DNA of 61,111 bases, counting the filler, from Dirinaria sp. TL-2023a (taxonomy: Eukaryota): the NCBI GenBank assembly GCA_051941275.1. It is 11 parts of 11 records of this genome, joined end to end, with 100 filler letters (N's around TTAATTAATTAA, not from the genome) between each part and the next. Parts side by side here need not be neighbours in the genome. Positions count along the whole stretch, not along the records: positions 11,171 to 16,644 come from JAVEBF010001647.1; 10 more parts are not named here. One strand, given 5' to 3'. Shown piece by piece: positions 1-54,033 of this stretch. A model generated the notes under the pieces. That model was not told where the DNA came from. It searched no databases and saw nothing but the letters and a program-made list of their open reading frames with translations. Within the stretch, counting starts at the first letter, position 1. Every line of letters starts with the position of its first letter. The translations under genes and the position numbers were made by a program.

Positions 1-3000
1 GCCAATGGCTTCACGGATATGATGAGATTGCTTAACTCTTACTGGACGGCCGACCTGACCAAAGCAGACAGCGTTGCTATCATCCGTGCTCTTGTGGTAG
101 GGAGTGGAAATGGTCATATTGACGTGGTGCGATATCTAGTCCAAGACATGTCAGCGGATAGCAATATTCTAGCCCCTGACAAACCCGTCAGACCAGGCTT
201 GAATGAAAGCTGGTGGACCAGACACTTTTTTGTCGTTGCACCAGGTGCTTCCGAGGAGTCGGAAGCGAGCCAAGAGGAGTCGGAAGCGAGTCCAGGGGAG
301 CGGGAAGCAAGTCCAGAGGCGTGGGAAGTGAGTCAAGAGGCGTCTACTACTGTAGCGCCAGTCATTTCCCCTCTTCAGGCAGCGCTCCGAGGCTTTTCTA
401 GGTTCAATTTTTCACTAAATATCTACGGCTCGATCTACGACAGTAAATATCAGCCTAGGAAGGCTAGAAAATCTCGGCACGAGGAAGTCATTCTGTTTCT
501 CATTAGCAACGGCTCCAAGCCCAATGATCTAGGTGGTCAAGATAAATACCCAATACAGATGGCGGTGGAATTCTGTCCAATTCATATCGTCGAGAGATTT
601 ATCTCAACAGGTATAAATATCAATGCGACTATTGATGGTAGGAGTGCTCTGTTTGCAGCCGCTGGACGCGAATTGTCCTCAGCTTTTATCGTTCGCAGGC
701 TCCTTGCAGCTGGTGCGACCATCCCGGAAAAGGTCGAAGAACAAGAAGAACTCCTCGAACAGGCTTTGCGCTACTTTAAAGGCAACACTTCAGGCACAGG
801 TTTTGATATCGATGGACACTTTTTGGAAGCTCCGTCGTTGGAGTACGTATTCAATAAAGGATCTGGAGCAGTGCTAGTTGATCTTCTCCATCGAATGCCG
901 TAGATTACAGCCACAGACAGAAGATGGACTTTGGTCTTGCAAATGGCCGCGCTGCTCAACAATCATCTCTTCGTTGACCAACTGCTATCTCGTGGCACTG
1001 ACGTCAATGCTATCGGATTTTACTACGGTATAGCATTTGCAGGCAGCGGCCCGCTGCGGACACATCAGTATGGTTCGCAGGTTGTTTGACGCGGGCGCCC
1101 TGGTCAACATAGTTAATGCTCGCTGGCACACAGCTCTGCGAGCAGCTATTATCGGCGGTCATGGAGAAATCGTAGAGACCCTTCTCAACCACGGTGCCGA
1201 TATGGAGCCCAGACTCACTGGGCAGCCGTGGTACGTTAACGGCTGGGAGAAAAAGTCAGATAATGCGCTACAGTTGGGTGTCAAATCTGATAGTCTGAAT
1301 ACTGTCAAGACCCTCCTCAAACATGGAGCAAATGCAGTGTATGTCGAGACTGAAACCGTGCATCCATTGATTCTAGCTTCAGGGCAAGGAAGTGTGGCAA
1401 CAGTAAAGGAGCTGCTTGATGCTGGCGCGCCAATAAATGTTTCCGGCAAGAAACGATCCTCTTTCATGGAGAACATTCGAGCCAAGGACGCGAGTCCAAT
1501 GCATTCAGCTGTTGCCAATGGATCCTTGGACCTAATCAAACTGCTGCTGTCCCATGGAGCAGATCTGGAAAAAAATATCGAGGAATCTGGCACACCTCTG
1601 AGTGTCGCAGCTTCTGAGGGTCGAGCTGACATTGTGCGTCTTCTCCTCTCAGCTGGGGCCAATGCGACTGATGGCGCGGCTTTGTATGCTGCTGTTAGAG
1701 AAGGAAGCATTGAGATTGCGCAGGAGCTTCTTGCAGCTGGCTCGAAAGCAGAACCTGTCCTAGCATTGGCATGCCGTCGAGGGTTGCTCCCCATGATTGA
1801 AATCTTACTAGAGAAAATATATGATGGCGAGAGGCCCGAGATTATCATCGACGAGGTGTTTGCTATCCATGGGCTAGGTGATTCTGTTTTCCGACTCCTG
1901 CTGGACTACGCCCGTCCTACCATGAAACAATTTATTCAAGTCTGTGCGGCAGGCTCCGCGCCATTGGTACAAAATATGCTAGGTAGAGGTGGTATCGATA
2001 TCAATGGACAGTTTGAGACGAATGGCGACTATCCGCTGCAGGTCGTAGCGTTGCACTTGCAAGCGGAGGTGGTCCGATTTCTCCTCACTAGTGGAGCTAT
2101 TGTGAATTGCAAGAGTGCAAAACATGGAACCCCACTGATGACTTCACTAGAAGCGTGTGCAATCTCTGTATTACGGCGTCTGGAGTCTGAAAAAACTAAA
2201 GACCTGATAGATCGATTGAACCTCCCAGATTCTATGAGATATTACCAATTTCGTACTTCGGGTCCAGGCAGCTTCGAACATGGCTCGGCCTGGGAGCAGG
2301 TCGTTCAGCTTCTTCTGAGCCACGGAGCGGACATCGTGAATGAAAACAGGCCTTTCGGATCGCCGATGCATCTTGTCTGCCTGCTAGGGAGTAAGCGTTT
2401 GATTGATTTGCTACTCGGGAAAGGGGCCGACTTCAGTGCAACTGCCGGATTTTTCGAGAAAACCATCTTCGCCGCCATCCAGGGAGGCAATCCGGATGTC
2501 GTGGATCTCGTTCTCCAAAAGGCACCGTTGACCAAACACATGCATCCTGAATATGGAACGCCATTACATCTTGCTTGCGCTAATAACTTCGGCGCAGCTG
2601 TCCGCAAGCTACTGGAGCATGGTGCAGACGCCACGGTTCTGGATGCAGAGGGTCGAAGTCCTTTGACAATAGCTCTTGAAATGAAGAGAAAAGGCGGCAT
2701 GCGCGTCGACCACTGCTATACAGAAGCACCTTTGGATATCATGATGAACCTTGCGAATCCACTCCATGTGCTCAATGAGGATCTTGTAAGAGCAGCTGAA
2801 CTAAATGATAAAGACGCGGAGAATACACTGGCCTTTCTTTTGGACATTGATCAGGACATGATAGTGCCTGAAACGGTTATGTGTAATGTTTTGAAGTGCT
2901 CACACGTGGGCAATGGGATCATCCAGCTCCTTATGCAAAGAAATGGTGGCATTGGAGTGACTGCCGCGATGCTCAAAGCAGTTAGAACTCATTACAATCT

Positions 3001-3700
3001 GGAAGAGCTGCTTGAGCACAGACCCATCTGCCGAATCACCCCAGAGATTCTTAAATTCCAAAGAGAGCGCGAATGTATGAAGCTACTACTGGACATTGCT
3101 CCGAAGACGACTGTCACTGAAGAAGTCATATTCCGGGCCGTAGAGATCGGGCATGCGTCAGCAGGGACGGAAGTGCTAGAGACACTTCTCGAACGCAGGT
3201 CAGATGTAATTGTTTCTCAAGAGATGTTACAAGCGGCGCGCTGTGGAGCAGATATGAAGATCCTGCTCAATCATCTGAGTCCTGATACTTGTATCTCTTC
3301 CGATGTTATTGCGTCGATGGAGAACTGGGGACCGTCTCAATCGTTGGCGGCAAATGAAACGATGCGTTCGTTACTCCAATTTGACCCCAGCATTAGGCTC
3401 GATCATGATACGATCCTGAAGATGATACGGCCGCCTTTCGAGGTTGACACCCTGGAGATATTTTTGGAACATGATCCGTCGATGTTAGTATCTGAGGAGA
3501 TTTTCCTGCGAGCCTTCGAGGAACGATGGAAACCTCATCGAGAAAAGCTCGTGGGATTCATGCACAAGTATGGAAATCGTCTGGTTCTCACGGAGACAGT
3601 GCGTAGAGTCATTGATGAGGCTTATCAAGACAAGAAGATGAAAACGCGATTGTACAATCTGAGTTTTCCAACATATCTGAGGAAGTTGATGTTAAATTAA
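1..3700 (+). pseudogene. Disrupted multi-ankyrin-repeat protein with C-terminal (I/V)TxExxxAA-type repeats (fungal NLR-like C-terminal part); 5' end outside the contig
   Basis: The frame is open from base 1 (ANGFTDMMRLL) and has many ankyrin repeats (HTALRAAIIGGH, SPMHSAVANGS, GTPLSVAASEG, GTPLHLACANN). There is an in-frame TAG at 901-903, after which the same frame still reads as ankyrin (LLSRGTDVNAIGFYYGIA). An extra T in TTT 1036-1038 shifts it into LQAAARCGH. C-terminal repeats: VTAAMLKAV, ITPEILKF, VTEEVIFRAV, VSQEMLQAA, VSEEIFLRA. Confidence 0.75.
253..342 (+). repeat. 21-bp coding tandem repeat (about 4.3 units, EESEASx heptad)
   Basis: gaggagtcggaagcgagccaa / gaggagtcggaagcgagtcca / ggggagcgggaagcaagtcca / gaggcgtgggaagtgagtcaa / gaggcg. 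Confidence 0.9.
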
Positions 3701-4557
3701 GGATGACGAAACAAGCCGGCATTCGTTCGCGATGGCGTTATAATCTGAATTTTGAAGACAGAAAATAGTCTCATTCTGAGGAAGAGCATAGATGACACCT
3801 CTCAAGTCGAAGATTTCTATCTAGATCATTCCCAAGGTCGACAACAAGCTTAACTTACAATTAAAAGCTTGGCTTGATACTACTCAAAGTTCTTGATCTC
3901 GGTATTATGTCCATCCAAATCGATGACGAAAGCGTAATATGTCTGAGACCAATCCTTCCTTGATGTCCATGCTCCATTGTCCTTATCTCCAGCTTCGATC
4001 GAACTCTTGTAAAAGAGTTCAACTTGGACGTTGTCTGTGTTGCTCATCAATCAATCGACTTTATTTTTTTTTTAATATGATCCACTTCTCCTTCTCCAAT
4101 AACTCGAACAAATCGATCGAGATCAAATATGATCTAAAAGTGGTATGGACCTCTTCACGTTTGCTACAGTGTGCTGCGAAGGACATATTCAATAGAGTTT
4201 CAGTCTCAATTCTAAACCTTCTATCCGACTAACTCTGAATACTTCCACTGCACAGTTTTAGGGCCGACATAGAGAAAGCAACTCATATGGGTACAAATCA
4301 ACTAGTACTGTCATGGTGCCAAGCTGCTTCTTTTCTTGTCTTTCGTCTTGTAACAAAATATAGTTATACCTCCAGAGTCAATCCAGATACCTCCTGTTCA
4401 GATAGTCCTAGCCTCAGCCCCTGACAGCCACACGGTTCTTTGCTCAGCAATACTTCAGCAGGCCAAGCAAAATCAATTTGAATTGCAACTTCTCTAATAC
4501 GGGAAAGATATGCAAAAGGATCTACCATTGTAATTCCGCTCATCCAGATTTGGGCTT

Positions 4558-4762
4558 TTATACAAAACTAGGAACCATCTCCCTCAAGAAGTCCTGGAAA
4601 GCACAGTGATAAAGGAAATTTGCTGCCGTTTCAATACAAGAATACCAGTAAGTGGCTGCATACCTAACCAATCGAAATTTATGTAAGAGAATTTCTCTAT
4701 CGTGTCCGGGACATCCAAGATCTGCGAAAGAAAGATACGACACAAGGGCATTACCAATCGCG
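4558..4762 (-). pseudogene. Possible relic of a fungal NACHT/NLR-type gene (post-winged-helix segment)
   Basis: AIGNALVSYLSFADL...FRLVRYAATYWYS resembles the CLxYLSF...LxYAAxYW motif of fungal NACHT proteins. It is flanked by stops and no NTPase domain is recoverable. Confidence 0.3.
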
Positions 4763-5493
4763 GTTCAAGATCTCTAGAATCTTCAAGGGAGTTGTAACGC
4801 TGAAACTAGTTTTTAACGGACTAATGTATACAGTACATCTTATCTAGAACAATATTCAATAGCGTGTCGGAGGCATAATAGAATTCAGTCCTTTCTTCGC
4901 GCAACATCGTCTCGAAAATTTGTCATAGCGTGTGGAAGAATACGTGGAAAAAATGATTGCTGTCTTTTTGGTACTCTAAGAGAAGAATCCGAAATATATG
5001 TTATCGATGCTCACAGAGCTGAGCAAGGAGTGCTTGGAGTAAGCACCAATAGTTATTCTCCATCTGTAGAGACCCTGCTCTGGGGAAATTTCGTAGCAAT
5101 TACTTAGAGTCCTCATCATCCATACAATCATCCACCTGCATCATACTTATGTCAAGCACCCATTGAGATATCCATCAAGACTCACAGAGGGCACTCACAA
5201 AGATCTTGCTGGAGGATTTATCAATGTCTCGCTGAAGCATTCATCAAGGTTTGGAGCCCTCATCAAGGCTTCACTGAAGCAACGGTCAAACCATCACTCA
5301 AGTATTAAAGCAACCTCTGGCGAATCTCTGCGGGGTTGATTCTCGTTCTTTGCTGCGGTCCAAGCCTGTGGTACGGACTTTTGATCCAACCAGCGAGATA
5401 GATTTCATTTTTAAATCTGTTGGTCCCATCGAGACCTTGCGCATCATGATCCAGTGCTAATTGCAAATCACATTGTCATGCGCCGAGTAAATT

Positions 5494-5593
5494 NNNNNNN
5501 NNNNNNNNNNNNNNNNNNNNNNNNNNNNNNNNNNNNNTTAATTAATTAANNNNNNNNNNNNNNNNNNNNNNNNNNNNNNNNNNNNNNNNNNNN
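5494..5593. other. Artificial contig linker
   Basis: 44 N + TTAATTAATTAA (stops in all six frames) + 44 N. Confidence 0.98.
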
Positions 5594-8088
5594 GGGGTGG
5601 TGTCTGGGAGCTTTGGGTGGTCTCTTACCGGAGTTACCAGGGACTGTCAAGCTAAAATGAACCCTGATCTCTAGTCTATAACTAGCTTCAGGGCAGAAGT
5701 GGCGCTCTCTGCTTCATCATTGGTTCCAGGCCTCATGCACGAACAATGGTTTGGATCACATCACCACCAATCAAATCTGACATCGCAACTTCTCTGTGAA
5801 CATCTTCTGACCTCCACTGCCCATGCACACTACTCCAAGAGGCAAGCGCGGCGCGTAGATGAGCCTGTGCAGGGGGAAAAAGAAGGACAAGAAAGACAAA
5901 AAAAAGTCTGGCTCAGTACTGTAACTGTACGAAGCGGGATCGCCACCCATGCTTTGACTCTCCCCACAGATCTCGAGTTCGACTCGTCAGACCTTTCCCC
6001 CATTCTAGACTACTACGGTACAATAATACATATGAATATGCCGTCTCCCGAAAATAATACCTAGGCTGCGCATATAGGAGCAGCTGTTTCCGAATTTCCG
6101 TGCTCGCCATGACCGTCTTTTCGGGTCCCCTTGGATCACGTTATCGCGAGAGAGGTAGGGGGTTGAGCCATTAGGCCGGTGTCGTGAGAAAGCTGGCACG
6201 GAGGGAGGACTCGAAAAAGGCCACTAAATATTGATGCCTGCATCTGTCTCGATCCCGAGATGAACGGTCCTGCATAACTACAAAAGGGCTTACCGCCTGC
6301 TGTGGTACCGTTGGAAATCACCGTTGGGAATCACATCACTGGGAGCTCCTGGACAACCGTTGACATTTTTCTAGAAGCCTGCGCTATCCGCTCGATGATG
6401 GGCAGTCTTATTACCTACGCGCCCTTTCTGCTGATCGCTCATGGCGATCCATCATTTCAACCGGGTTTTGCGACAGCAATGGATGCAAACCATCTTCCAC
6501 ATCCGGGCTTTGGGCCACCATCCAAGCGCTCTAGATCAACCGTGGGCGGTAACGTCGGCTAGTGGGATTACGATGATGTGATGTTTTGTGATCTATTCAA
6601 CCATGGGACAATTCTCCGGCGCGAGTGCATGATCGAACCCAACGTTTTATGAGGGAAGCAAGCAAGCAGCACATTGATGCAGACAATATTTCCGAGTACG
6701 GTGTAGAAGCTCGTCGACTTTGGTAGTGGCGCTATATGTCTGAGCTTAGCCGTATTAATAGGAGACACCCACGCTGTCCCACTTTGGCGGCAGGCCTGTT
6801 CTCCATATCCTCCTATCTGGGAACGAAGCGTGGATGACCCAGGTCAAGTAGCCGACCATCACACGCAGTAACATGCTGCTTCATGCGATGAGGCCTGACA
6901 TCCCCCACGCCGAGATACATACAGTACATACAGATTACAGAATGAGTCTTATTGTTTCGGCTTCGCATGGGATGATGGGAAGTTTGTACCAAACGTCTTC
7001 CTCCTATTCCCGCATCCCCGCCCGCTAGTCGGCCAAACTAAAATGCGGGCCTTGCCCGCCCAATCTACCGCAGTACCGCTTGTGCCAGATCATCAGGCAT
7101 TATTGCTGGTCCAACGCCTCACCCTCATTACTTATTGTCCTCAAATACAAGTCGCTACGCTGTCGCCGTGGTCCGAGTAGATGTGTACACGTTGCTGATA
7201 CTGCTACAAACCAGCTTCTGGCTATGCGACAACCACTGGGTGGCGTCATGCACAATGTGCTGTTCCACAACCTACCCGAGAGAAGAGGGAGGCGAGTGGT
7301 TCTTCCACATGGGGCAGTCAACGCTCCTTGCTTCGTATCAAGTCCGTTGGAGGTTGGTGTAACGCAAGCAGGACGGCCTGCTTGATCATCATCATCATCA
7401 TTATCATCATGTAACGCATCGGGACGAGACGCTTGATCTGATGCAGAGCCTGCAGACAAGACTCTCGAATTGGAGGATTCACACCGTCCTGCCGCGCAGC
7501 AGGGACTGACTCACCGTATCTCCATACCTCAGGACACCATGAAATATGACGACACTTCTGACACAGGTAACTTGAAGAATTCGGAAGCCAAGCGAATGAT
7601 GCTGAGGACACATATCTGAACGTATTGCCGAATCATCAATCAGACGGAATCAAGCAAGTCTTTGGATTTACGTAAGGCACTCAATTTGAGCTCCTGGAAA
7701 CATGGTGATGTAGGGGAAAGGCATATCATTCGATACTCAATTTTGATTTTTGTGGAATTATCACTACTCGCTAGACAGCGCTATGCATACATCAAGCTCC
7801 AGCCGTGTATCGTCAACATCAATAGTTCGACTATACTTGCCAAAAGGGCATCGGGGTATCATATACAGATTGGGCACATTCTGTGTGCCGTGGCAGGGTA
7901 TCACCAACATTCCCTGTCGCCGTATATGCCGAGAATCGTACATGGGTATCATCGCTACACTCGCTGCGTTATTCGTGATCGCTAGAAAACAAAGCTGCGC
8001 AAGCCGTTAGCACGCACCCTTACTCACAGTGGTCCCTTGCAGGTAACTCACCAAAAAAGGTTCAAGGAAAAGAAGAGTTTCGTTGCAA

Positions 8089-8685
8089 TCACTCCTGCCC
8101 CTCGACGATGGGACTCATCTTCCCCACCCACCGCTCCTTCTTTAACGGACTACTCCGTCTTCTTCTGCTCTTCTTCACTGGCTTCCGTTCCGGCTCCCTC
8201 ACTATGACTGGTGGCTGTCGCGTCATACTCCAACTAATCTCCATCTCGGGGAGCCCGGTCACGACACGCATATCGCCTCTCAGTTCCAGTTCCTCCAGAT
8301 CTAACAAGTCGTCATCGCTAATGTGGCTGCTTGTTGATTTCCAGCCATTAGCGCTTTGGAAGTAACATGATGTTGGTGAGGTGGTGAACGCGGAGGAGAG
8401 CAAGGGCCCTGACGGCCACGAAGGAAAAGCGCAAGCAGAGTTTGAAGAGGGCGAGTTGTACGGCACCGGTGGAGGGGTGGCGGGGGAAAGAGAGAAACAG
8501 TCGGTGGCGGTGGTGGTTGAGGGAGGCGATATCAGGCTCTTGAGCGGTACGCTGATGGGATTCGCAAATGGTGGCGACAGTGATGATGAAGAGGTGGATG
8601 AGGTGGTCGAGCACGAAGATAGCGACGCGTCGCTACCTCTTCGTACACCGCTTTCTGTGTCGGGGAACATGATGCTGGGGCGCAT
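8089..8685 (-). CDS. Ser/Pro-rich hypothetical protein (198 aa) with CAFPSWP, SSHISDDDL and C-terminal MSPIVE motifs
   Basis: ATG-to-stop ORF. The short motifs within low-complexity sequence resemble a small uncharacterised Pezizomycotina family (recalled, not searched). Basic stretch KKSRRRRSSPLKK. Confidence 0.6.
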   Translation of the reverse strand: MRPSIMFPDTESGVRRGSDASLSSCSTTSSTSSSSLSPPFANPISVPLKSLISPPSTTTATDCFSLSPATPPPVPYNSPSSNSACAFPSWPSGPLLSSAFTTSPTSCYFQSANGWKSTSSHISDDDLLDLEELELRGDMRVVTGLPEMEISWSMTRQPPVIVREPERKPVKKSRRRRSSPLKKERWVGKMSPIVEGQE

Positions 8686-11070
8686 GATGATTGCGCTTTC
8701 TTCGTGTGTGCAGCCGTCGGCGAAAACCCAAGGAAGAAGAAAAGAAGGCTGTTCAGCAGCGTGGAATGCTTGAGTCTCTTATGACTCTCTGTCCAGTCCA
8801 GACCGTTGGCAAGGTGAGTCAAAGTTAGGTAAAGCCACCGATTCGTGGGAAGGGGGCGCCGCCGCAAATAAAGTATACTTTATCGAAAGTACGTATCGAT
8901 CGGGGAATCCCGTTCCCCGTGCCTTGGCCAAGTCGCCACTACGCGCGTGGCCGAAGCTGGATGATCTTCTCTCGGTAATCGGATTCCGAAAGTTGATACG
9001 TGATCAATAATATCGAATAAAATCACCACCAGGTGGCAATATCGATCGATAAAGGATAAATGATCTTTCTTGTTTGTGATAGATTCGAGACTCTCTCTCT
9101 CGTCGCGTCCGCGGAGAGGCGGAGATGTGGTTCCTGATATATGAAACCCCTTCCACGCAGCAGCTGAAAAAGTGAAGTGAGGCCAGCAAAGGGCGAAGCC
9201 GGGGCCCTGTCGGTAAGGGATACGCCGCGCGTGAGCGTAGGCAAGTGATGATATGTACCACGTCACGAGTTGGGGAGCAACAAGGTGATGATGATGTGTG
9301 AGACCGAGTGTGGGTGGGCTGTAAGCCTGTAACTCGGTACTCTCAGGTATGCTAAGCCAAATGGTGAAGCGTAGCGTGAGTCCGGGCGCCGCACACTACT
9401 ACTGGCAACCGCAGCAAGCAAGCAAGTGAATCCTTGAATCTTAGAATCCTCTATTGAAACAATCAGAAAATAGGAGAACACGAATGAAGAAGGGTGGCGC
9501 CGTTTGTGGGGGAAGGGGGCGGCGCCTTTTCTAATATACACACACACATATTATCCATTCTCAACGGGCTTACGTGCGGATTACTATCTTACGGGATTGC
9601 GGAAGGGAAAGGGACAAGAAAAAGCGGTCGGTGGATAGCATGGATGCCTACGATATTAGGATCTGGCCTCACGGGCTGAGTTTCTGATTACATACCTTAC
9701 CTTACCTTACCTTATTCCATGGGATCTCACGGATTGGACGGATCGAATGGATGGATGGGATTGGGAAGGCGGTGACCGAGAGAGCAATCGAATACCACTC
9801 ACACACCTGAGTCCTGACTGTACCTATCGAAATCCACCGGACTATCCGCGCCCACACACATACACGTGGGAAGTAGGGGTGTCCGCGGTGTGTGTGGGAT
9901 TTGACAGGCAGGGCTGTACGGAGTAACCTTGCTCTGGGCACGCTTGGGGCGGTCAGCAACCCAAGGTTACTAAGGTAAGGCAGCCGAGCAGGGGGTGGGG
10001 GGGCCGATTTCCATCTCTGGGATGGGCTTCCGATGCACCTCACTACTGTTTTTGGAGCGGTTGCCGACCGATACGAACGAGCCGAATTGAACGACGGATA
10101 CGACGGGGTATTTTTTTTTCTTTTTCTTTTTTTTTTTTATACCGAAGGGATCGGATGGGGGGTTTGATTAGTATATCATAAGCTCTGTAGCTTCGCTGCT
10201 TTTTTGAAGTGCTTTTCTCTCCGCGCGAAGTACATTATTCATTACATATGAAATCCCATGTTTCCTCCATCTCAAATCTGTCTAGGGGAAATGGAATAAT
10301 GTGCTTTGGTAAGCTGATGAACGATGACTAACGTACTCGTACAGCGACAGAAAAGAAGTTCTAGAACGGAGGTGAAGGGTCGTCGTGTCAGATACCTTCC
10401 TCACCTTACTACACAACAATTGGATGTGCCTGGGGTTTTAATCTTGTTCGGCCGATTTTTTTTTTTGGGCGGTGTCGGTTGTCTCGGGTTATTATTCGAA
10501 ACGAGAACGATTACGGAATACCTATGCATCGCAATGAATAATGGGAAGAGGCAAGCGATGAATGCAACACCACTCATTTTAGATCCACAGGGGAAAGGGG
10601 ATTAAGAAAAAAGTCCTTCTTTCCTAATGTGGTATATACATATGTGTGGATAACTCCGATATACCTTAAACGTCTACTCTTACAGCAGTGAAAACAAACC
10701 CCCTCATCATCCATCCAGCCAGCCAGCCAAAACAAAGCCCAGCGAGAAAAAAAAGGAAAAAAAAAGCGGGGGAAATTGGGGGAAATCCTCCGAAAGGGCG
10801 TGATGGCGGTCGTCGTAGTGACTACCTACATGAGGTAAATACATAAAACACTCTCCCAGTCCGTTCTCTCTCCACATTTTCCCCCTCCGCGCTCGCGGCT
10901 CGCGATTCAAACCTCCCCCCACCACCACCAAATTCCATACACGACCCGGGAATTCTCCTTAAGATTTAAATCCACCGATATCAGTATCAGTATCACTATC
11001 AGAAGAGCAAGGTACTCCGTACGGGAAGGTATCTAGATGTAAATCCACCGAAAAACCGTTGCTTATCAAC

Positions 11071-11170
11071 NNNNNNNNNNNNNNNNNNNNNNNNNNNNNN
11101 NNNNNNNNNNNNNNTTAATTAATTAANNNNNNNNNNNNNNNNNNNNNNNNNNNNNNNNNNNNNNNNNNNN
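11071..11170. other. Artificial contig linker
   Basis: N44-TTAATTAATTAA-N44. Confidence 0.98.
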
Positions 11171-11189
11171 CTTTTTCTTTCATGTATAG

Positions 11190-11543
11190 AGTTCCTGACA
11201 ATGATGGCTCGAAAGATGAAGGACACCGACTCCGAGGAAGAGATCCGGGAAGCATTCAAAGTGTTCGACCGTGACAACAACGGCTTCATCTCGGCCGCGG
11301 AGCTGCGTCACGTGATGACCTCGATCGGGGAGAAGTTGACCGACGACGAGGTCGATGAGATGATCAGGGAAGCCGATCAAGATGGCGATGGACGGATCGA
11401 TTGTAAGAGCTGTCCCCCCCCCTCCCTGCCCCCTGGCGGGTTTGCGAGACGACGACCCCAAGCGCCCAGCCCAGACCATGCTTCGGCTCTTACTAACCAA
11501 ATCCCCAGACAACGAATTCGTGCAATTGATGATGCAAAAATAA
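11190..11543 (+). CDS. cmdA: Calmodulin, last two exons (11190-11402, 11509-11543); 5' part outside the contig
   Basis: [82 protein letters not shown]. Intron 11403-11508 is GTAAGA...TACTAAC...CAG. Confidence 0.98.
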
Positions 11544-12657
11544 CCAAGAGTGCCATATACCTCACTCGTTCAAAGGGTGGTTGTTGCCAACCAGGCTTTC
11601 ATACCCCGTGGGTTAGCTTGTTTTTCTCTCTCTGTTTTCCTCTAGAAGTGCAAAGGAGGCACAAAGCGAGCGATTGGAAGCATGTACACTGTGTGTGAGA
11701 GAGAGAAAGGGTGCCTTTTACTAAGGGCCTTTCCCCATTCCGCAGCTTGGTAGTACCAATATTTTGTTGCAGATTTTTTTGATTCGGAAACGCAAGCAAG
11801 CAAGCATCTCATTGCCTTTTGACTTTCCCACTGCATTTGCAAAACTCCTAAGTGATAACTCCGCCCCAATCCCACAGTCCCCTCCGAACACGCCTCCAAC
11901 ATCAATCGACTAATCCCCTTCCAAAGCTAATGTCCCTGCACGCAGTGCCCACTGCCATGTATGTACAACCGAAGAAACCCAAAATAAAAAACAAATCTCC
12001 TCCTCATGATACAGTTCTCCCATAAAGTAATCTTACATTCAACTCATACCAGTTTTTTTCCTTCGCAGCCCTTTTTTTGCTCACTACTTTCCGACCGAGT
12101 AGTAGACTCTTTTCTCCTCAAACCTAAGGCGGGATCTCTCTTCGTGCTACAGGCGTCGTTTGTGCGGAGTGCGCATACTTTTTGATGATATCCATAGATG
12201 GGATTCGTTGCGGTAGGGAAAGTGCTCGGGGGACTTGCTGTTTCTGGCTGGATAAGGTACTGCGATACTGGAGTTTTTGGATTCGCGGTAAGGACTGGGT
12301 TTTTGAGTTGGGGTTGTTGGATGGTCGCCATACTCTTTGGTGGTCTGGATAAGGGGTACTCGGTGGGGGAGAGGGAGGGAAATTCAAAGGAATTGCAGGT
12401 CTTGATTGCGTACTGCGATGTCGTTGAGAGGGAAGAAAAACTCGAAAGAATTGCATTTTCTGACTGGACACTGCTATGTCGTTGATCTGAGGTAATGACT
12501 GGTTTCTTGTTTGGCGTTGTTGTCTGGCCATCATACGATTATGTGATATAGATTGATGATAATCGTTAAAGTAGGAAAGTGCTCAAGTGACTCGCAGCTT
12601 CTAATCGTACAACTGCTATGTCGATGCTTGAACCGTTCCTTCTCAATAATGATTGGT

Positions 12658-13290
12658 TTATTCTCTGACAATCTGATACAGCCTAAGCGCAGGATAGATA
12701 TTGTTCCACGCCTGCTGCACCTCAGCCATCGACTTCGCGCCCGTGATCACGACCTTCCCCTTGGCAAAAACCAACAGCACCACACCGGGCGACTCCATCC
12801 TATACACCAGACCCGGGAAAATCTCGGGCTCGTAGCGGCAGAAGGGGAAATGCGCGCCGGAGCTGAGGCCCTCGAGGCGGATCAGCATCTGGCTGTCGGC
12901 GCTGCTGACCATGTTCTGCAGCTTCCACTCCCGGAAATGGGCCGCGTACCCGAGGCGCTGCAGCGTGCGCGCGAACTTGCGTCCCGCCAGCCGCGAGTCG
13001 TCCTCGCTGCGGGACCCCGTGACGACGACCTTTCCAGTCGAGAACACCAGGGCCGTGGATTTCGGGTCCCGGATGCGCAGGATCGCGGCCGAGAACCGTT
13101 GCGGGTTGTAGGTCGCGTTGCGGGCGTGCTGCGCTACGTGCTGCAGGTCGACGCGGCACGCCAGGTTGAATGTCGATACGACGTTTCGGACGATTGGGCC
13201 TTCGACGCTGGAAGGGGTGACGGTGGATGGGGTGGCGGCTTGGGAGGGCTGAGATCCATTCGCTTGCTGAGAGGACCGAGTGGCAGGCAT
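12658..13290 (-). CDS. Divergent TATA-box-binding protein (TBP-related paralog), 210 aa, intronless
   Basis: Two TBP pseudo-repeats: RNVVST...HARNATYNPQRF...TALVFSTGKVVVTG and QNMVSS...IRLEGL...YEPEIFPGLVYRM...LLVFAKGKVVITGAK. Complete ATG-to-stop ORF. Confidence 0.92.
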   Translation of the reverse strand: MPATRSSQQANGSQPSQAATPSTVTPSSVEGPIVRNVVSTFNLACRVDLQHVAQHARNATYNPQRFSAAILRIRDPKSTALVFSTGKVVVTGSRSEDDSRLAGRKFARTLQRLGYAAHFREWKLQNMVSSADSQMLIRLEGLSSGAHFPFCRYEPEIFPGLVYRMESPGVVLLVFAKGKVVITGAKSMAEVQQAWNNIYPALRLYQIVRE

Positions 13291-15104
13291 TTTGGGATTA
13301 GGGGGTGGCTGTCAGGGGTATTATTTCAAAAAAGAAGCTGATGCTTGAGCAAATGAAGCTGGGTTTCGCTAATTATGGTTCACTTTGGGTATTGAATGAT
13401 ATTTAAACGGGAGTAAGTAATGCACGATGTACTGTGCGTATCTAGCTAAATTTGTGGAAAAGATAGAGAGAGAAGACTCCCGAGAGAGTCTGCTCTTTAA
13501 TATCATAGAAACTAGGAGAAATCTGCTCAATAAGAAATACGCTTACCGAGACTTCTGCTCAACAAAACGGTGATCATTAATTGCTCCTAGCGAAAGATTT
13601 CGAACGGGGAACCGGAATGGAAAGCCGCTTCTCAACGAGAAATATGCCTGTTAGCCGCTCATAGCGAAGAGCCTCAAAAGGAGATTCTGAGTCAAAAAAA
13701 ACCTGGTCAACCACTCAATGGCGACGGCAGAGCCCGGAAGAGAAAATCTGACTCGGTGAGTTAGGTTTTTTTTTTTTTTTTTTCAGCAGAACCGAGCAGT
13801 CAGGCAACTGCCTCGTGATCACATAGCTCGTCGAGCACTCTGTGAACGTATTACTCGTGCTCTCGCTAATGGAAATACCACTCGCTCTGGTAAGAGTGGG
13901 TGCTCGCTGCTTGACTTGTCTAGGGGTGTATCGATTTTCTTCTTTTTCTTGTTCGTGTTACTCATAGAACTTGAACGGGTTATCTACATAACAATGGTTC
14001 TTATTGATTGAAGAGTCCATCGACATCCTGTTGATGTATTGTACCATATTCGTCCGGAGAGAACGACTGTTGGTTTGCTTGACAAGTCTCTGAAACGAGC
14101 ACCCTGCGAAGACATATGTAGGAAACAACAGTTTGAGTAACATTACATAGCGGAAGAGCCTAGAACGGGGATTCTTTAATAGGAGATTCTTTCCGAATAG
14201 AAGAGAGGCATTTAACCACCACACGTCCTGCTCGAGCAGCTCTTGCAATGTGTATTTTTCCACAAATAAACCTAAGGCTACTAAAGTAGCAGCTCACGGC
14301 AACGCAGGCTGGAAAAAGATAATAGGGAGCCAGAACTCCCGCCACTCACTCCCTATGTACTTCTACTAACAAAAGTTTTGTCACCATACTGGGTCGTAAT
14401 TCATGTTTGTAAGTGCTTTCACCGTGCTCTTCCTATGACTTGAGGAACTTCTACGGCTTCTTGAATTAAAGTCGGCTCTTGGATAATAGGTAAGCCCATC
14501 GTCATCTCGTCAAGATTGGTTAATTATGAAATATTAGAGTCGAAGGCAGTTATTCGAGGACAATCCGATGTCTGGCCTTGAAGAAAGCCCTACCGCGAGG
14601 AGACCGGGTTTTCTAAAATCCGGTCCAATCGGCCAATGGCCTTGTTCCCAACGTTGATCGGCAGCGCTTATGCAAAGTATGTACTGCGCCACATATCAGC
14701 CACAGACACTCTGTCGAGGTCAAATAATTCATCCCATTGTGAGTATAACCCGATGAGCAAGGGACGCGCATACAGCGCCCAAATCCCATTCGAACACCGA
14801 GCGCGGCATTGCTCCAAACCAATTTACAGCAAAATATTTCCGGGAACCAGAATTGCAAAATCCGGTGCAGCGGCATCTATCGGTTCGTCATTGCCGCCAA
14901 GTGGGAGAGACACAGCCCCATTATTAAGTAAGTCGAGTAGACTACAATGACCGACTATCAAACCGTGGAGAGCTCCTTCCTCAAAGTCTCTGCTATTTGT
15001 GTAATTTTCCTATATATGCCTGGAGCCTTTTGATCCCATCCTCTTCGCTTCTACAGGATCTGGAACCCTCTTGTGCTTTACAAACCGATCTTTGCACGTC
15101 AATC

Positions 15105-16626
15105 ATGTCGTATCCTCCTCAGGGTGGCTATCCCCCGTACGGAGGACAGCAACGTAAGATCGATACTGATGCCTATGAACCTTTAGGGGAAATGCTAAGG
15201 CCGCGTAGAGGGCTACGGCCAGCCTCCACCAGGCCAATATCCGCCTCAGGGCTATCCACCGCAACAGCAGGGCTACGGCGCTCCTCCGCCTCAACCATAC
15301 GGCCAGCAACAAGGATACCCACCGCAAGGACAATACCCACCTCAGCAGCAACACGGCGGCTACCCGCCTCAGCAGCAACATGCCTATCCACCACAGCAAC
15401 AACCTCCATACGGCGCACCATCACATAGCCCGTATCCCCCACAACAGCAACCATACGGTGCCCCTCCGGGCCCACATGGCCCCCCTCCAGGCCAGTACGG
15501 CGCTCCCCCGCCTCATAGTCCTCAACCCGGTTACGGTGCTCCTCCTCCATCGCATAGTCCTCAACCATATGGCCCCCCCCAACATGGCCAATATGGCGCA
15601 CAGCCGTCCGCACCGTATGGTGCCCCTCCACCTCAACCATACGGTGCCCCGCCAGCCATGCCAACCCCACCGTCCCCAGGCTACGCATCAAACCACGCAG
15701 TGCAATACGACGCCTCAATGCGTGCCGATGAACTGAGGCGAGCCATGAAAGGGTTCGGTACGGACGAATCAACTCTGATCCGCACTCTCGCCCATATCCC
15801 TGCAGTGGAGATCCCCTGTCTGAAAACCACGTACCAACAGCGCCATAACCGCAGTCTAGAAAAAGACATCGCAAGCGAAACATCGCGCTACTTCGAAGAC
15901 TGCCTCCTCTCCATCCTCCGAGGGCCCTTGCAGCAAGACATCTGGTGCCTGAACCACGCCCTGCACGGGCCCGGCACGCGGGAGAGCTGGCTGAACGACG
16001 TCCTGATCGGGCGCTCGAACGCAGACATGCACGCGATCAAGCAAGCCTATCAACAAACCTATCGGCGCTCCCTCGAAGCAGATGTGCGGGGTGACCTGAG
16101 CGCGAAGACAGAGCGGATGTTCATGATGCTGCTGGCGGGCACGCGACAGGAAGATTCGGCGCCCGTGCTCCCTCAAAACGTCGACGCAGACGTCGCCGAA
16201 CTGCACCGCGCCACGGAGGGCAGGGTCGGCACGGAGCAGCTCACCGTCTGCTCGATCCTGTCTTCGCGCTCCGACGGCCAAATCCGCGCCATCGCCCTCG
16301 CCTACGAAGCCAAGTACCACAAATCGCTCGAGAAAGTCCTCGACGCGGAGTTCGCCGGCCATATGGAGCAGGCGCTGGTGCAGATGGTGCGGTGCGGCAA
16401 GGACCGCGCCATGCGCGACGCAGAGCGCTTGGAAGACTGCATGCGTGGCGCCGGCACCAAGGACGAACGCTTGGTCGCGATCATTGTCGCCCTGCACTGG
16501 GACCGGGCACACATGTCCCAGGTTCGAGGAGCGTACAAGCACCGCTTTCGAACGGATTTGACGACGAGGATCAGGCAGGAGACGAGCGGCGATTATCAGC
16601 GCTGTTTGATTGCTATGATTGAGTAG
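15105..16626 (+). CDS. Fungal annexin (ANXC type) with long P/Q/G/Y-rich N-terminus; exons 15105-15153 and 15209-16626
   Basis: MSYPPQGGYPPYGGQQ, then intron GTAAGA...GCTAAG...TAG, then an in-frame PQGY repeat region. Four annexin repeats follow (MKGFGTDE, LHGPGTRE, EGRVGTEQ, MRGAGTKD...QETSGDY). Confidence 0.93.
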
Positions 16627-16644
16627 GCCCCGATATGTTCGGGG

Positions 16645-16744
16645 NNNNNNNNNNNNNNNNNNNNNNNNNNNNNNNNNNNNNNNNNNNNTTAATTAATTAA
16701 NNNNNNNNNNNNNNNNNNNNNNNNNNNNNNNNNNNNNNNNNNNN
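16645..16744. other. Artificial contig linker
   Basis: N44-TTAATTAATTAA-N44. Confidence 0.98.
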
Positions 16745-51131: not shown

Positions 51132-53243
51132 TCAGCCACCCTGCGCCTGATGGTCCTGGATCAAGTGATCCCAGAACGTCCAGTCTGCGGTATCGAGATT
51201 GAAATCGTTGCCGATATCGAAGCCCATGTCCCCGGAAAGGTTGCCGAAAAGTGTACTCGCGTCACTCGCAGGGGACGGACTGGTCGGTGAAAACTTGTCC
51301 GTTCTCGGGTCAAGAGTAGCTGCGCTGCTCCCCCGCCGTTCCGCACGGCTGTGAGGGTTCAATTTCCGTAAAGAGCGTAAGGTCGTGATGAAGGCCGGCT
51401 CGGGCGAATTGCCGCTCGGTGGGTTGGCGTTCCAGGCCTTCAGCGTGAGGCGCCCAACGGCTATTTGCAGCGCCCGCTCCGACTCCAGGAGCTCGCCGTG
51501 ATTGCTGTAGACTTGCTCCACCCTGCTCCAAGCGGCATCGGTTTCCGCAGGTGAGAGCAGGTCCGATCTCCGAAGGCTAGTTAGGATAAAAACCAATGAG
51601 TCCCACGAACCCCACGCGAAGAATGATCGCACATGCCACATATACTTCCTTAGGCTTGTGTGAGCGTAGGCTGCCGTATCTGTATCGATGATCTTCTGCG
51701 AAAGTCGTAACAATTCTCTTCTCTCCGCGTCAGGGACGGTCTGGTTCCTGACTCTTGGGAGCCGAGTCCGGAGACGCATGGCAGTGATTGCAGACCTGGC
51801 AAAGCCGATGGTCAGGAAATGTAGGGGATTGACGATATCGCAGTAGCGGATGTATTTCTCTTCGACTTCCCTTTCGGCCTCATTAATCAGCGGCTCGACT
51901 TCGTTGTAGTCTTTAAATTGCCCGGTTGCTGCGGCCTGGACCGACTTCCCAGTCCTGGCAAAGGTCCTCCCGACAGATGAGCGCGTCAGGCAGAAGATCA
52001 TCTCCGTTGCGCCCTTTTTCTCCTCCGGTCTCTCGGTCATTCCTGGCCAGATCTGGTCATCATTGAGGTTTAAAGGTGGCTCTGTGTCCCACGTGTCTAT
52101 CGGAACGGCTATGCCGGTACCTGACATTTGGCTAGCAATCCCGTCAAGTGGTAACAGTTGGTAAAATAGCCGTCGCCTCATTTGAACATCAAAGGGAGGC
52201 AGACCAAGTTTCTCTCCGTCCCGGTGGAGTCCAATGCGTTGCGCTATGCGGACTGCGACACCTGTCAAGATCCAGTAGGTGTGTGGGTCGTAGAAATATC
52301 GGCAAGGAATCAAGAAGAGGGCGAGAGCTTGCATGATCGACATCTCGGTAGTCTTGAGGAAAGACGCGTTGACAAGAGCTTGTCGAGTCGCGAATTGATA
52401 TTTTTGCATCAATGTAGCTCGCGACTGTCCAAGGTTCTTTTCGCATTCCTCTTCTGCCATAGAGAAGACTGCAAAGTGATATATGGCAAACAGCAAGCAC
52501 TCGTCGGCCTTCGATGCCAAGGAAGGCTGCTGAGAAGCCATCTCGACCGTCTTGAATGTCGACGGAATGTGCAGAATCTTGCAGATTGGTTCCACACGGT
52601 CAATATGCGTCTTCCACAGCATTATGGCTTCCGCATGGGTTGGATGATAATGGAGAAGGTCCTGTTGAGTACCCATGAACGCTCCTGTCAAAGGATCCGA
52701 TACGGAGCCCCCAGCCACCTCGGTAGCCACTTGATCCTCTTCTTCGTCATCGTACATATGCTGCATCTCATCGTCGCCCAGAGTCCGCCAGAGGTTGCTG
52801 TCTATGTATCTTGACTTACCGTGACCCGTCAATAGTTTGCCGGTTTTGGACGTTTCGGAGTCAGTGAAACGGAAAGGTATCAGTCCCTGCGGCGTCCCAT
52901 CGGTGGAGGGCGATGCATCAGCATCCTGCGGTAGCAAGCCATGTTGGTGCAGAATGCGCTCGTATCGAGCAAGCTTTTCGTTGACTTCGCCGCTCAGCTT
53001 CCTTTTCCGCCGTGGTGGCAAAGGCGCTTGATAGACGCACTCGAGCTTGCCTTTGCGGCAGCTGGAACATATCGGCGTTATTTTGTCGCATCTCACCTTC
53101 CGTTTCGCACAATTTTGGCAAGCACATGGCATTGTAGGTTGAAGTGAGTCTCCATTGATGCCTGAATCCGCTGATGAAGTATTGGCAGGCACTGAGGCGG
53201 TAGCTTCTGGCCTGCTATGTGTCTGGGCATCTGTAGAGGCCAT
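51132..53243 (-). CDS. Zn(II)2Cys6 transcription factor with fungal TF middle-homology region, intronless
   Basis: ACQNCAKRKVRCDKITPICSSCRKGKLECVY, VEPICKILHIPS, WILTGVAVRIAQRIGLHRDG...PPFDVQMRRRLFYQL, PPLNLND. First ATG (MASTDAQ) at 53243. Confidence 0.92.
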   Translation of the reverse strand: MASTDAQTHSRPEATASVPANTSSADSGINGDSLQPTMPCACQNCAKRKVRCDKITPICSSCRKGKLECVYQAPLPPRRKRKLSGEVNEKLARYERILHQHGLLPQDADASPSTDGTPQGLIPFRFTDSETSKTGKLLTGHGKSRYIDSNLWRTLGDDEMQHMYDDEEEDQVATEVAGGSVSDPLTGAFMGTQQDLLHYHPTHAEAIMLWKTHIDRVEPICKILHIPSTFKTVEMASQQPSLASKADECLLFAIYHFAVFSMAEEECEKNLGQSRATLMQKYQFATRQALVNASFLKTTEMSIMQALALFLIPCRYFYDPHTYWILTGVAVRIAQRIGLHRDGEKLGLPPFDVQMRRRLFYQLLPLDGIASQMSGTGIAVPIDTWDTEPPLNLNDDQIWPGMTERPEEKKGATEMIFCLTRSSVGRTFARTGKSVQAAATGQFKDYNEVEPLINEAEREVEEKYIRYCDIVNPLHFLTIGFARSAITAMRLRTRLPRVRNQTVPDAERRELLRLSQKIIDTDTAAYAHTSLRKYMWHVRSFFAWGSWDSLVFILTSLRRSDLLSPAETDAAWSRVEQVYSNHGELLESERALQIAVGRLTLKAWNANPPSGNSPEPAFITTLRSLRKLNPHSRAERRGSSAATLDPRTDKFSPTSPSPASDASTLFGNLSGDMGFDIGNDFNLDTADWTFWDHLIQDHQAQGG

Positions 53244-54033
53244 TTGTCCTTTCTGATGCCAATTCAGAGCGCCTGTTATCACTTCGGGCGTTATGTTCTC
53301 CAGAGAGTTGGTGGATTATTGTGCGGAGGGTGCCTAAGGTAGTTTCAGTCCGAAGTTGGCCATACTAGATTAGTCGCTAAGGAACCTTAACCCCATGGCA
53401 ACCCTTTCGTTTCCATTGAAGTACTTTTGAAGCCGTTTGAAACGCCGATATGTAAACGACATGAAGTTTCCCAATCACCAAGAAAGACCGGCTATTTTTC
53501 ACGCCTGGATAACCTCTTGGGTATGCTATCGTCAAGTCCGCTCTTGGCTTTTGCCGCATCTTCGCCGTTAATATCGATCTGTGCAATATTTTGCCTGTCG
53601 ACCTCAACAGATATATGTCTAACGGTGGTATTCTGATCAGTGTAGAGGATGCATGATGCAGGTCGTACAGGTAGTACCAAGGGAGGTATGTAAGCATGTA
53701 CTAAGGTACATTTAATATGTGAGGTACTTTGATGCTCCGGTGTTTGGTGCTTAGCCGATAACCCTGTAAAAACCCTGAGCTTTTCGATTAAACTTAACCC
53801 CTTGGACTGCCAAGATCCGATTATCGGCCCAAATACTCGAATTATGTCTATCCGGGGTTTATGTACATATTGTACATACGGTACTTGGAAGGCCTGCAAC
53901 ATCATGCACACCGCTTATTATCGGCTACAAACCTCCCAATTAATTTCAGCAGACAATATAAAACCCATACGATCCCCAATTGACTCATACTTCCCTTCTT
54001 CATGCGACTTCGCCTCCTCAATAATCCACCATC

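Follow-up and report, generated by a model that had tools for sequence, protein, structure and literature searches.

Fungi are the textbook case of a single TATA-binding protein (TBP) serving all three RNA polymerases, and the locus described here raises the question of whether some of them also keep a second, strongly diverged one. The locus lies in a 61,111-nucleotide (nt) stretch of DNA, hereafter the window, from the genome assembly of Dirinaria sp. TL-2023a (GenBank GCA_051941275.1), in which positions 12658-13290 of the minus strand, on the piece derived from record JAVEBF010001647.1, encode a TBP-like protein of 210 amino acids (aa). The original prediction, made from the sequence of the window, had proposed a duplicate TBP that still binds DNA and has altered cofactors. 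Our comparative analysis points to a broader reading: with a likelihood that we place a little above even, the Dirinaria protein would be functional and belong to a clade of diverged, lineage-specific TBPs of filamentous ascomycetes, that is, a "fungal TBP-related factor," and its gene most likely co-exists with that of a canonical TBP.

A genuine TBP far removed from the canonical core

The open reading frame (ORF) starts with ATG, runs for 210 codons with no internal stops, and yields the whole two-repeat protein in a single frame, so that no intron is required. Its GC content is 0.60, 0.47, and 0.815 at the 3 codon positions, compared with 0.43 to 0.45 GC in the flanks, and the third-position value (GC3) is close to those of the calmodulin (0.77) and annexin (0.71) genes on the same contig. 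Two overlapping ORFs, one antisense (12553-13341, plus strand, 262 aa) and one in an alternative frame (12800-13159, minus strand), were considered as genes and rejected: neither matched a Pfam family, and both were taken as by-products of GC-rich coding. Given that the GC3 is far above the flank GC and that the overlapping ORFs belong to no family, 12658-13290 is regarded as the true coding frame. The complete, intronless, and strongly GC-biased ORF of the original prediction is thus confirmed by the ORF list and the codon composition.

The product matched the Pfam TBP family (PF00352) in two stretches with an E-value of 4.1e-59 and a score of 196.8 bits (cut-off 22.9), bearing out the earlier recognition of both TBP repeats. 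A phmmer search of solved structures matched 35 distinct sequences, all named as TBP except the microsporidian 4wzs_D ("ECU04_1440 protein"); the eukaryotic matches, led by Chaetomium and yeast, had E-values of 1e-62 to 1e-66, and the archaeal ones approximately 1e-31. An AlphaFold2 model made from 12 sequences of the clade (see below) reached a mean predicted local distance difference test (pLDDT) score of 85, with values above 90 over most of the core and below 50 at residues 1-28. In Foldseek comparisons, the model superposed on the TBP cores of plant, human, and yeast with target-normalized template modeling (TM) scores of 0.94 to 0.97 and root-mean-square deviations of 0.6 to 1.3 Å, and both modeled repeats display the expected S1-H1-S2-S3-S4-S5-H2 elements of the saddle. 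The Dirinaria protein is hence a real two-repeat TBP, for which the model predicts the full saddle fold. The N-terminal tail had been likened to those of Pezizomycotina TBPs; a short AATP stretch was indeed aligned to the Chaetomium TBP tail by HMMER, whereas the resemblance as a whole is weak.

The core sequence is nonetheless far from that of canonical TBPs. The Dirinaria protein agrees in 102 of its 176 core columns (58%) with a consensus built from 208 other TBPs, and its core is 57% to 61% identical to those of canonical fungal, animal, and plant TBPs (57.8% to the Massariosphaeria TBP P0409, 59.0% to a basidiomycete, 58.4% to a sea urchin, and 56.6% to a Sorghum TBP), matching the 55% to 60% that had been estimated by hand. 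By comparison, the canonical Pezizomycotina core shares 88% identity with the basidiomycete core, 81.5% with that of the sea urchin, and 79% with that of sorghum, and among named Dothideomycetes belonging to several orders, canonical cores are 97% to 100% identical to one another. The Dirinaria protein is therefore more distant from the TBP of its own kingdom than canonical fungal TBP is from plant TBP and, since its 57% to 61% contrasts with the 97% to 100% among canonical Dothideomycetes, it is no ordinary ortholog. It departs from canonical fungal TBP (Spt15) both in core identity, which there would be about 80% or more to other eukaryotic TBPs, and in the first stirrup, which there is a near-invariant NAEYNPK/R.

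A clade of diverged TBPs in Pezizomycotina

Searches of protein collections uncovered a clade of short-tailed diverged TBPs comprising 12 clusters, including that of the Dirinaria protein, a number that is a lower bound because the finding searches rely on shared words. The nearest relatives are P0002 (74% identity), P0116 (72%, a fragment), P0003 (60%), P0004 (59%), and P0007 (55%). A profile search added 4 proteins from Dothideomycetes, namely those of Meristemomyces frigidus (P0087), Oleoguttula mirabilis (P0115), Salinomyces thailandicus (P0499), and Tothia fuscella (P0105), and P0009 and P0112 are further members bearing the clade signature. All species-named members are Dothideomycetes (Pezizomycotina). 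The complete members are 188 to 220 aa long with short tails, and their cores are 50% to 77% identical to that of the Dirinaria protein; several are already public, labeled "hypothetical protein" or "TATA-box-binding protein." The signature of the clade consists of [ML]LIRLEG in place of FPIRLEG, of F168 (yeast numbering) replaced by M, L, or I in 11 of the 12 members, of S209 changed to K or R (10 of 12), of a change within the stirrup at positions 93-97 (12 of 12), and of the short N-terminal tail.

A maximum-likelihood tree (44 rows, 195 columns, 200 bootstrap trees) recovered all 11 clade rows as monophyletic with support of 99/87, a split present in every one of the 200 bootstrap trees, and grouped the Dirinaria protein with P0002 and P0116 (97/93). 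The clade unites Teratosphaeriaceae-type black fungi with Tothia, apart from the canonical Dothideomycete TBPs; this branching fits paralogy and conflicts with the species tree. The one-off duplicate that was initially envisaged is not what the tree returned: the Dirinaria protein belongs to an older, multi-species clade.

Could the diverged protein instead be the only TBP of its organism, an unusually fast-evolving ortholog? Its DNA-contact residues and its TFIIB stirrup are all kept (see below), so that a general TBP role is possible in principle, and a sole TBP of this kind would be equally notable as the fastest-evolving fungal TBP known. We nevertheless consider this quite unlikely: canonical cores are 97% to 100% identical across Dothideomycete orders and 88% identical to those of basidiomycetes, the first-stirrup residues E93 and P96 hardly ever vary among 210 other TBPs, and a clade of distant fungi would have to have undergone parallel acceleration onto the same signature residues. 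That one Pezizomycotina genome can carry 2 TBP genes is illustrated by Massariosphaeria phaeospora, in which P0409 and P0005 lie on different contigs; P0005 differs from the diverged proteins in having arisen recently: it shares 87% identity with P0409 and falls inside the canonical group and outside the diverged clade. Within the 61-kb window, a tblastn search with the canonical P0409 matched the TBP-like gene only, with no second TBP.

The top 2 matches of an exhaustive search of representatives, P0121 and P0122 (E-values of 4e-122 and 7e-69), were set aside as not being relatives of interest, their scores being inflated by tandem plant cores. They are gene models from Penstemon and Acer with 2 TBP cores in tandem, likely fused duplicates or annotation artifacts. 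Another strongly diverged two-repeat TBP (Pfam E-value of 1e-52), 39% identical to the Dirinaria protein, is encoded at positions 468-1058 (plus strand) of a 1.9-kb metagenome contig (L006).

Selection on the diverged genes

Five metagenome loci (L001-L005) carry genes of the P0004 type and were compared in 10 pairs. The ratio of nonsynonymous to synonymous substitution rates (dN/dS) was 0.009 to 0.041 in 8 of the 10 pairs, at dS of 0.196 to 0.27; the remaining 2 pairs are near-identical, one with 2 synonymous and no nonsynonymous differences and the other with 5 synonymous and 2 nonsynonymous ones. The P0004-type sister subclade is thus under strong purifying selection. For the Dirinaria gene itself, the indications are indirect. 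Among columns that are at least 90% conserved, the protein departs from the consensus at 13 of 83, against 61 of 93 among the others (Fisher p = 1.6e-11). Changes that spare the conserved columns, together with an intact frame and a GC3 far above the flanks, suggest that this gene, too, is constrained.

The DNA and TFIIB surfaces are kept and the first stirrup is altered

Residues were numbered as in yeast TBP through alignment to chain 7o4i_O, and column counts refer to the 210 other TBPs. We take the roles of individual residues (DNA contact, the stirrups, E93, and K97) to be those established in work on yeast and human TBP.

All 14 DNA-contact positions checked are kept. The retained residues comprise the 4 intercalating phenylalanines F99, F116, F190, and F207 (residues 66, 83, 158, and 175 of the Dirinaria protein), the asparagines N69 and N159 (residues 36 and 126), and the threonines T124 and T215 (residues 91 and 183), along with V71, V122, V161, V213, L114, and L205. 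The basic face of helix H2 is likewise preserved as K or R at positions 133, 137, 138, 141, and 145, and R90 is kept. In the second stirrup, which is presumably the TFIIB side, P187 and E188 are retained in all 12 clade members, and the L189I change of the Dirinaria protein also occurs in 56 of the 210 other TBPs. Human R188 and K243, equivalent to yeast R90 and K145, are given as BTAF1/Mot1 contacts in part of PMC3287176.

The first stirrup, which we take to be the TFIIA docking site, presents a different picture. Among the other TBPs, E occupies position 93 in 208 of 210, P occupies position 96 in all 210, and K or R occupies position 97 in 200, whereas all 12 clade members carry an alteration within the 93-97 segment; human E191, the counterpart of yeast E93, is presumably a position at which mutation makes TBP defective for TFIIA. 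Further changes of the Dirinaria protein at columns conserved to 90% or more are Q68R, L80V, I85V, M104L, S118T, A126S, F155W, F168M, S209K, F227W, and K239I, in addition to E93T. Passages of PMC7221094 describe TBP's N-terminal lobe as binding TFIIA, TAF1, Brf1/2, Mot1, and NC2, and yeast Q68 is described as an MBF1 contact in part of PMC5703946.

In the second repeat, F155W, F168M, and F227W occur jointly in the subclade of the Dirinaria protein, and the 2 tryptophans are found in 7 of the 12 clade members; the trio may reflect a repacking of the second-repeat core. The extra residue before the second stirrup lies in a column that only the Dirinaria protein (P0001), P0002, and P0003 fill; 208 of 208 other TBPs have a gap there. 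A Teratosphaeriaceae-type subclade (P0087, P0115, P0499, and P0112) keeps the 4 phenylalanines and has replaced V122 with Q, T124 with L, and T215 with V or L, suggesting that its DNA recognition may differ more from that of TBP.

The column table agrees at every point with the residues listed in the original prediction: the 4 phenylalanines, 2 asparagines, 2 threonines, and the YEPE stirrup are present, NAEYNPK, RKY, and GSCD have become NATYNPQ, RKF, and SSAD, and 1 extra residue precedes the second stirrup. For the further proposal of DNA binding with altered cofactors, the kept contact set and the changed first stirrup provide the residue-level part, and binding itself is what we infer from them.

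A putative alternative core-promoter factor

On these grounds, the diverged TBP would bind and bend TATA-like DNA and recruit a TFIIB-type factor as TBP does. Docking of TFIIA would differ or be absent, and other regulators of the N-terminal lobe, possibly including MBF1 in view of Q68R, would also dock differently or not at all. With its cofactor docking altered in this way, the protein would nucleate initiation complexes at some promoters, or in certain conditions, alongside the canonical TBP.

A more far-reaching version of this proposal, which we regard as rather unlikely, is that some filamentous ascomycetes, rock-inhabiting and halotolerant black fungi and the undersampled lineage of the Dirinaria protein included, have kept an old second TBP that kinks TATA and recruits TFIIB-type factors but has abandoned the usual docking site for TFIIA and regulators, so as to provide TFIIA-independent and Mot1/NC2-insensitive initiation for a dedicated program such as stress survival, dormancy, or symbiosis. 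If true, a TFIIA-independent second TBP in fungi would have its counterparts in the animal TBP-related factors (TRFs) and in the multiple TBPs found in haloarchaea.

A further alternative is a duplicate that has ceased to initiate transcription, being either silent and a relic or a competitor that engages TATA boxes or cofactors unproductively. The first stirrup is altered, Q68R falls on the MBF1 contact cited in part of PMC5703946, V122, T124, and T215 are gone from a more derived subclade of Dothideomycetes, so that members of the clade can evidently drift from standard DNA contact, and the gene is known from its sequence alone. A silent relic would be hard to reconcile with the intact 633-nt frame, a GC3 of 0.815 against a flank GC of 0.44, the retention of 70 of 83 highly conserved columns, and the dN/dS of 0.01 to 0.04 in relatives. 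We consider a non-initiating duplicate rather unlikely overall: a silent relic is unlikely, and a role as a regulatory competitor is possible.

Several points weigh against a functional paralog of fungal origin. The TBP-like gene sits on a contig of only 5.5 kb, and the case for a paralog draws on the TBPs of other species; among 10 clusters looked up, none was a canonical TBP of the 4 named species that contribute clade members. The evidence comes from sequence and predicted structure, the dN/dS values describe a sister subclade that is 59% identical rather than the lineage of the Dirinaria gene, and the functional meaning of E93, K97, and Q68 is borrowed from yeast and human TBP. The tree has no power to place the clade, because the alternatives fit equally: constraining it with canonical Pezizomycotina changed the log-likelihood (lnL) by +1.42 and constraining it with plants by +1.40, each with a p-value of 0.55 in the approximately unbiased (AU) test. 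The proposed origin by fungal duplication is hence drawn from the distribution. Finally, synteny with L001-L005 is weak. The earlier suggestion of checking the calmodulin-annexin surroundings gave no match at L002-L005; only L001 (1 of 5) contains an annexin fragment (28 aa, E-value of 6e-9, 9.5 kb upstream of the TBP-like gene), plus a weak ankyrin-like match, and the 3' neighbors differ from those of the Dirinaria gene.

Origin of the clade

The distribution is read most simply as a duplication within Pezizomycotina: the named members are all Pezizomycotina, the flanking genes are fungal, and the GC3 is neighbor-like. A retro-origin, one of the two kinds of duplication raised in the original prediction, would be a possibility; the Dirinaria gene is intronless, and its relatives at L001-L005 are likewise single-frame and intronless.

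The alternative is that fungi gained the clade horizontally, with a giant virus or a non-fungal eukaryote as donor. The unconstrained tree leaves it outside canonical Dikarya TBPs, in a polytomy that lacks resolution, and the plant constraint fits as well as the Pezizomycotina one. A feature-based search of the Atlas returned generic TBP clusters only, the top one having Nucleocytoviricota as its commonest phylum label, a result that comes without an alignment and is a lead only. One relative (at L004) borders 8.7 kb of repeat-like DNA of 15% to 33% GC. Against transfer, non-fungal sequences are at most approximately 59% identical to the Dirinaria protein, whereas its nearest relatives, at 60% to 75%, are all clade members; every species-named member is from Pezizomycotina; and the GC3 is in line with that of calmodulin (0.77) and annexin (0.71) on the same contig. 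A viral origin was also tried directly and abandoned: a scan of viral contigs, with 11 pattern matches, contained 0 relatives. Transfer, with which the tree is compatible, lacks positive support and appears unlikely.

The relatives are flanked downstream at L001-L005 by cofilin-like, mitochondrial carrier, and pinin-type genes. At L004, positions 1-8700 upstream of the P0004-type gene have 15% to 33% GC with nearly no ORF of at least 120 aa and resemble repeats degraded by repeat-induced point mutation (RIP), as do L003 and L005 upstream of about position 8716. The upstream DNA differs between the loci, which are otherwise 90% to 96% identical.

Contig context and feature coordinates

The window consists of 11 pieces sorted by decreasing length, the longest of 5,493 and the shortest of 5,446 bp. 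Piece lengths agree with the longest-contig values on record for proteins of the window (5,474 for P0001 and 5,451 for P0281). Between the pieces stand identical spacers of the form N44-TTAATTAATTAA-N44, the middle of which is a 12-base linker with stops in all frames, and the spacers lie at 5494-5593, 11071-11170, and 16645-16744, with 7 more at a spacing of approximately 5,550 bases. The calmodulin and annexin genes, reported earlier to share a contig with the TBP-like gene, do so: all 3 are on the N-free piece at 11171-16644. The coordinates of the gene, its parts, and its neighbors are listed in Table 1.

Table 1. Features of the diverged TBP gene and of the contig piece that holds it (window positions; residue changes in yeast numbering)
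Feature	Position	Strand	Evidence or remark
Intronless complete coding sequence of the diverged TBP	12658..13290	-	210 aa, stop included; ORF list, Pfam, GC3
Low-complexity N-terminal tail, residues 1-31, predicted disordered	13198..13290	-	pLDDT below 50 at residues 1-28
First TBP repeat, residues 33-113	12952..13194	-	Pfam best stretch 33-113; model E33-42 to H96-112
First (presumed TFIIA-side) stirrup NATYNPQR, residues 58-65	13096..13119	-	E93T, K97Q
Second TBP repeat, residues 120-205	12676..12933	-	Model E120-132 to H188-204; F155W, F168M, S209K, F227W clade-typical
Loop SSGAHFPFCR with one-residue insertion, residues 143-152	12835..12864	-	pLDDT dips to 80
Second (presumed TFIIB-side) stirrup RYEPEIF, residues 152-158	12817..12837	-	Y185, E186, P187, E188, F190 kept
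TATA-like octamer, candidate core promoter element	13400..13407	-	110-117 nt upstream of ATG; read from sequence
Calmodulin gene, 3' half, truncated by contig start	11189..11543	+	EF-hand Pfam matches; convergent with the TBP-like gene
Annexin gene	15199..16626	+	Pfam Annexin, E-value of 2.9e-67, four repeats; divergent from the TBP-like gene
True N-free contig piece holding the TBP-like gene	11171..16644		5,474 bp; spacers at 11071-11170 and 16645-16744

In an assembly as fragmented as this one, with pieces of approximately 5.5 kb, the contig could in principle be chimeric or a contaminant and the TBP-like gene foreign to the fungus from which the calmodulin and annexin genes come. This is hardly credible: the 5,474-bp piece has no N, the flank composition is even and the codon GC3 neighbor-like, and relatives of the gene reside on fungal-type contigs of up to 356 kb beside cofilin, mitochondrial-carrier, and pinin-type genes.

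The ankyrin, WLM, pyruvate kinase, and Zn2Cys6 factor genes of the window lie on other pieces and are unlinked to the TBP-like gene. The best named relatives of the Zn2Cys6 transcription factor (51132-53315, minus strand), at 73% identity, come from Phialemonium, a Sordariomycete, and Ptychographa, a lichen-forming Lecanoromycete, with Dothideomycetes and Eurotiomycetes next at 55% to 66%; the taxonomy of its matches is patchy, and the collection searched has no relative at 90% identity or above.

Comparison with known TBP systems

We found no description of a clade of diverged TBP paralogs in fungi in the literature; the per-species paralog tables of PMC7221094, which possibly list fungal extras, were outside the scope of this search. 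TBP is listed as a single-copy factor, the most conserved one, in ascomycetes in part of PMC9934661, and passages of 10.1101/2025.10.03.680374 contrast yeast with animals, in which TBP paralogs evolved. If true, a diverged TBP clade maintained by selection in ascomycetes would mean that alternative core-promoter factors arose in fungi too. It would also constitute a natural variant in which the DNA and TFIIB surfaces are kept and the stirrup for TFIIA and regulators is varied, and such a variant would help to dissect TBP contacts promoter by promoter in genetically tractable organisms.

With canonical TBP (Spt15, Massariosphaeria P0409, and Chaetomium 7z7n_D), the Dirinaria protein shares the 2 repeats, the predicted saddle, the 14 DNA contacts, the second stirrup, and the H2 face. 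It differs in its core identity, 57% to 61% compared with 79% to 100% among canonical TBPs themselves, and in its 31-residue tail, its one-residue insertion, and a gene that needs no intron. Unlike the Teratosphaeriaceae-type members of its own clade, it keeps V122, T124, and T215, which are replaced there.

The Dirinaria protein probably stands outside the TRF families of animals, which originated in that lineage; in the tree, its clade is apart from the 5 animal rows (rows other than TRF1 and TBPL1), including the Schistocerca "TBP 2." Among the animal paralogs, TBPL2 has approximately 90% core identity to TBP, TBPL1 is far more diverged, and Drosophila TRF1 combines a similar core divergence with retained binding of TATA-type DNA and interaction with TFIIB. 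Insect TRF1 therefore offers what seems the best analogy, in functional terms, for a lineage-specific alternative TBP; it is the product of an independent duplication in the animal lineage. TRF1 aids RNA polymerase III transcription according to part of 10.1101/2025.10.03.680374, and TBPL2/TRF3 and TBPL1/TRF2 are described in passages of PMC7221094 and 10.1101/2025.10.03.680374 as lineage-specific TBP paralogs that serve specialized programs. In TBPL1, a Phe at a position of DNA contact has changed, in a conserved manner, to Trp (noted in part of PMC7221094), whereas the Dirinaria protein keeps all 4 phenylalanines.

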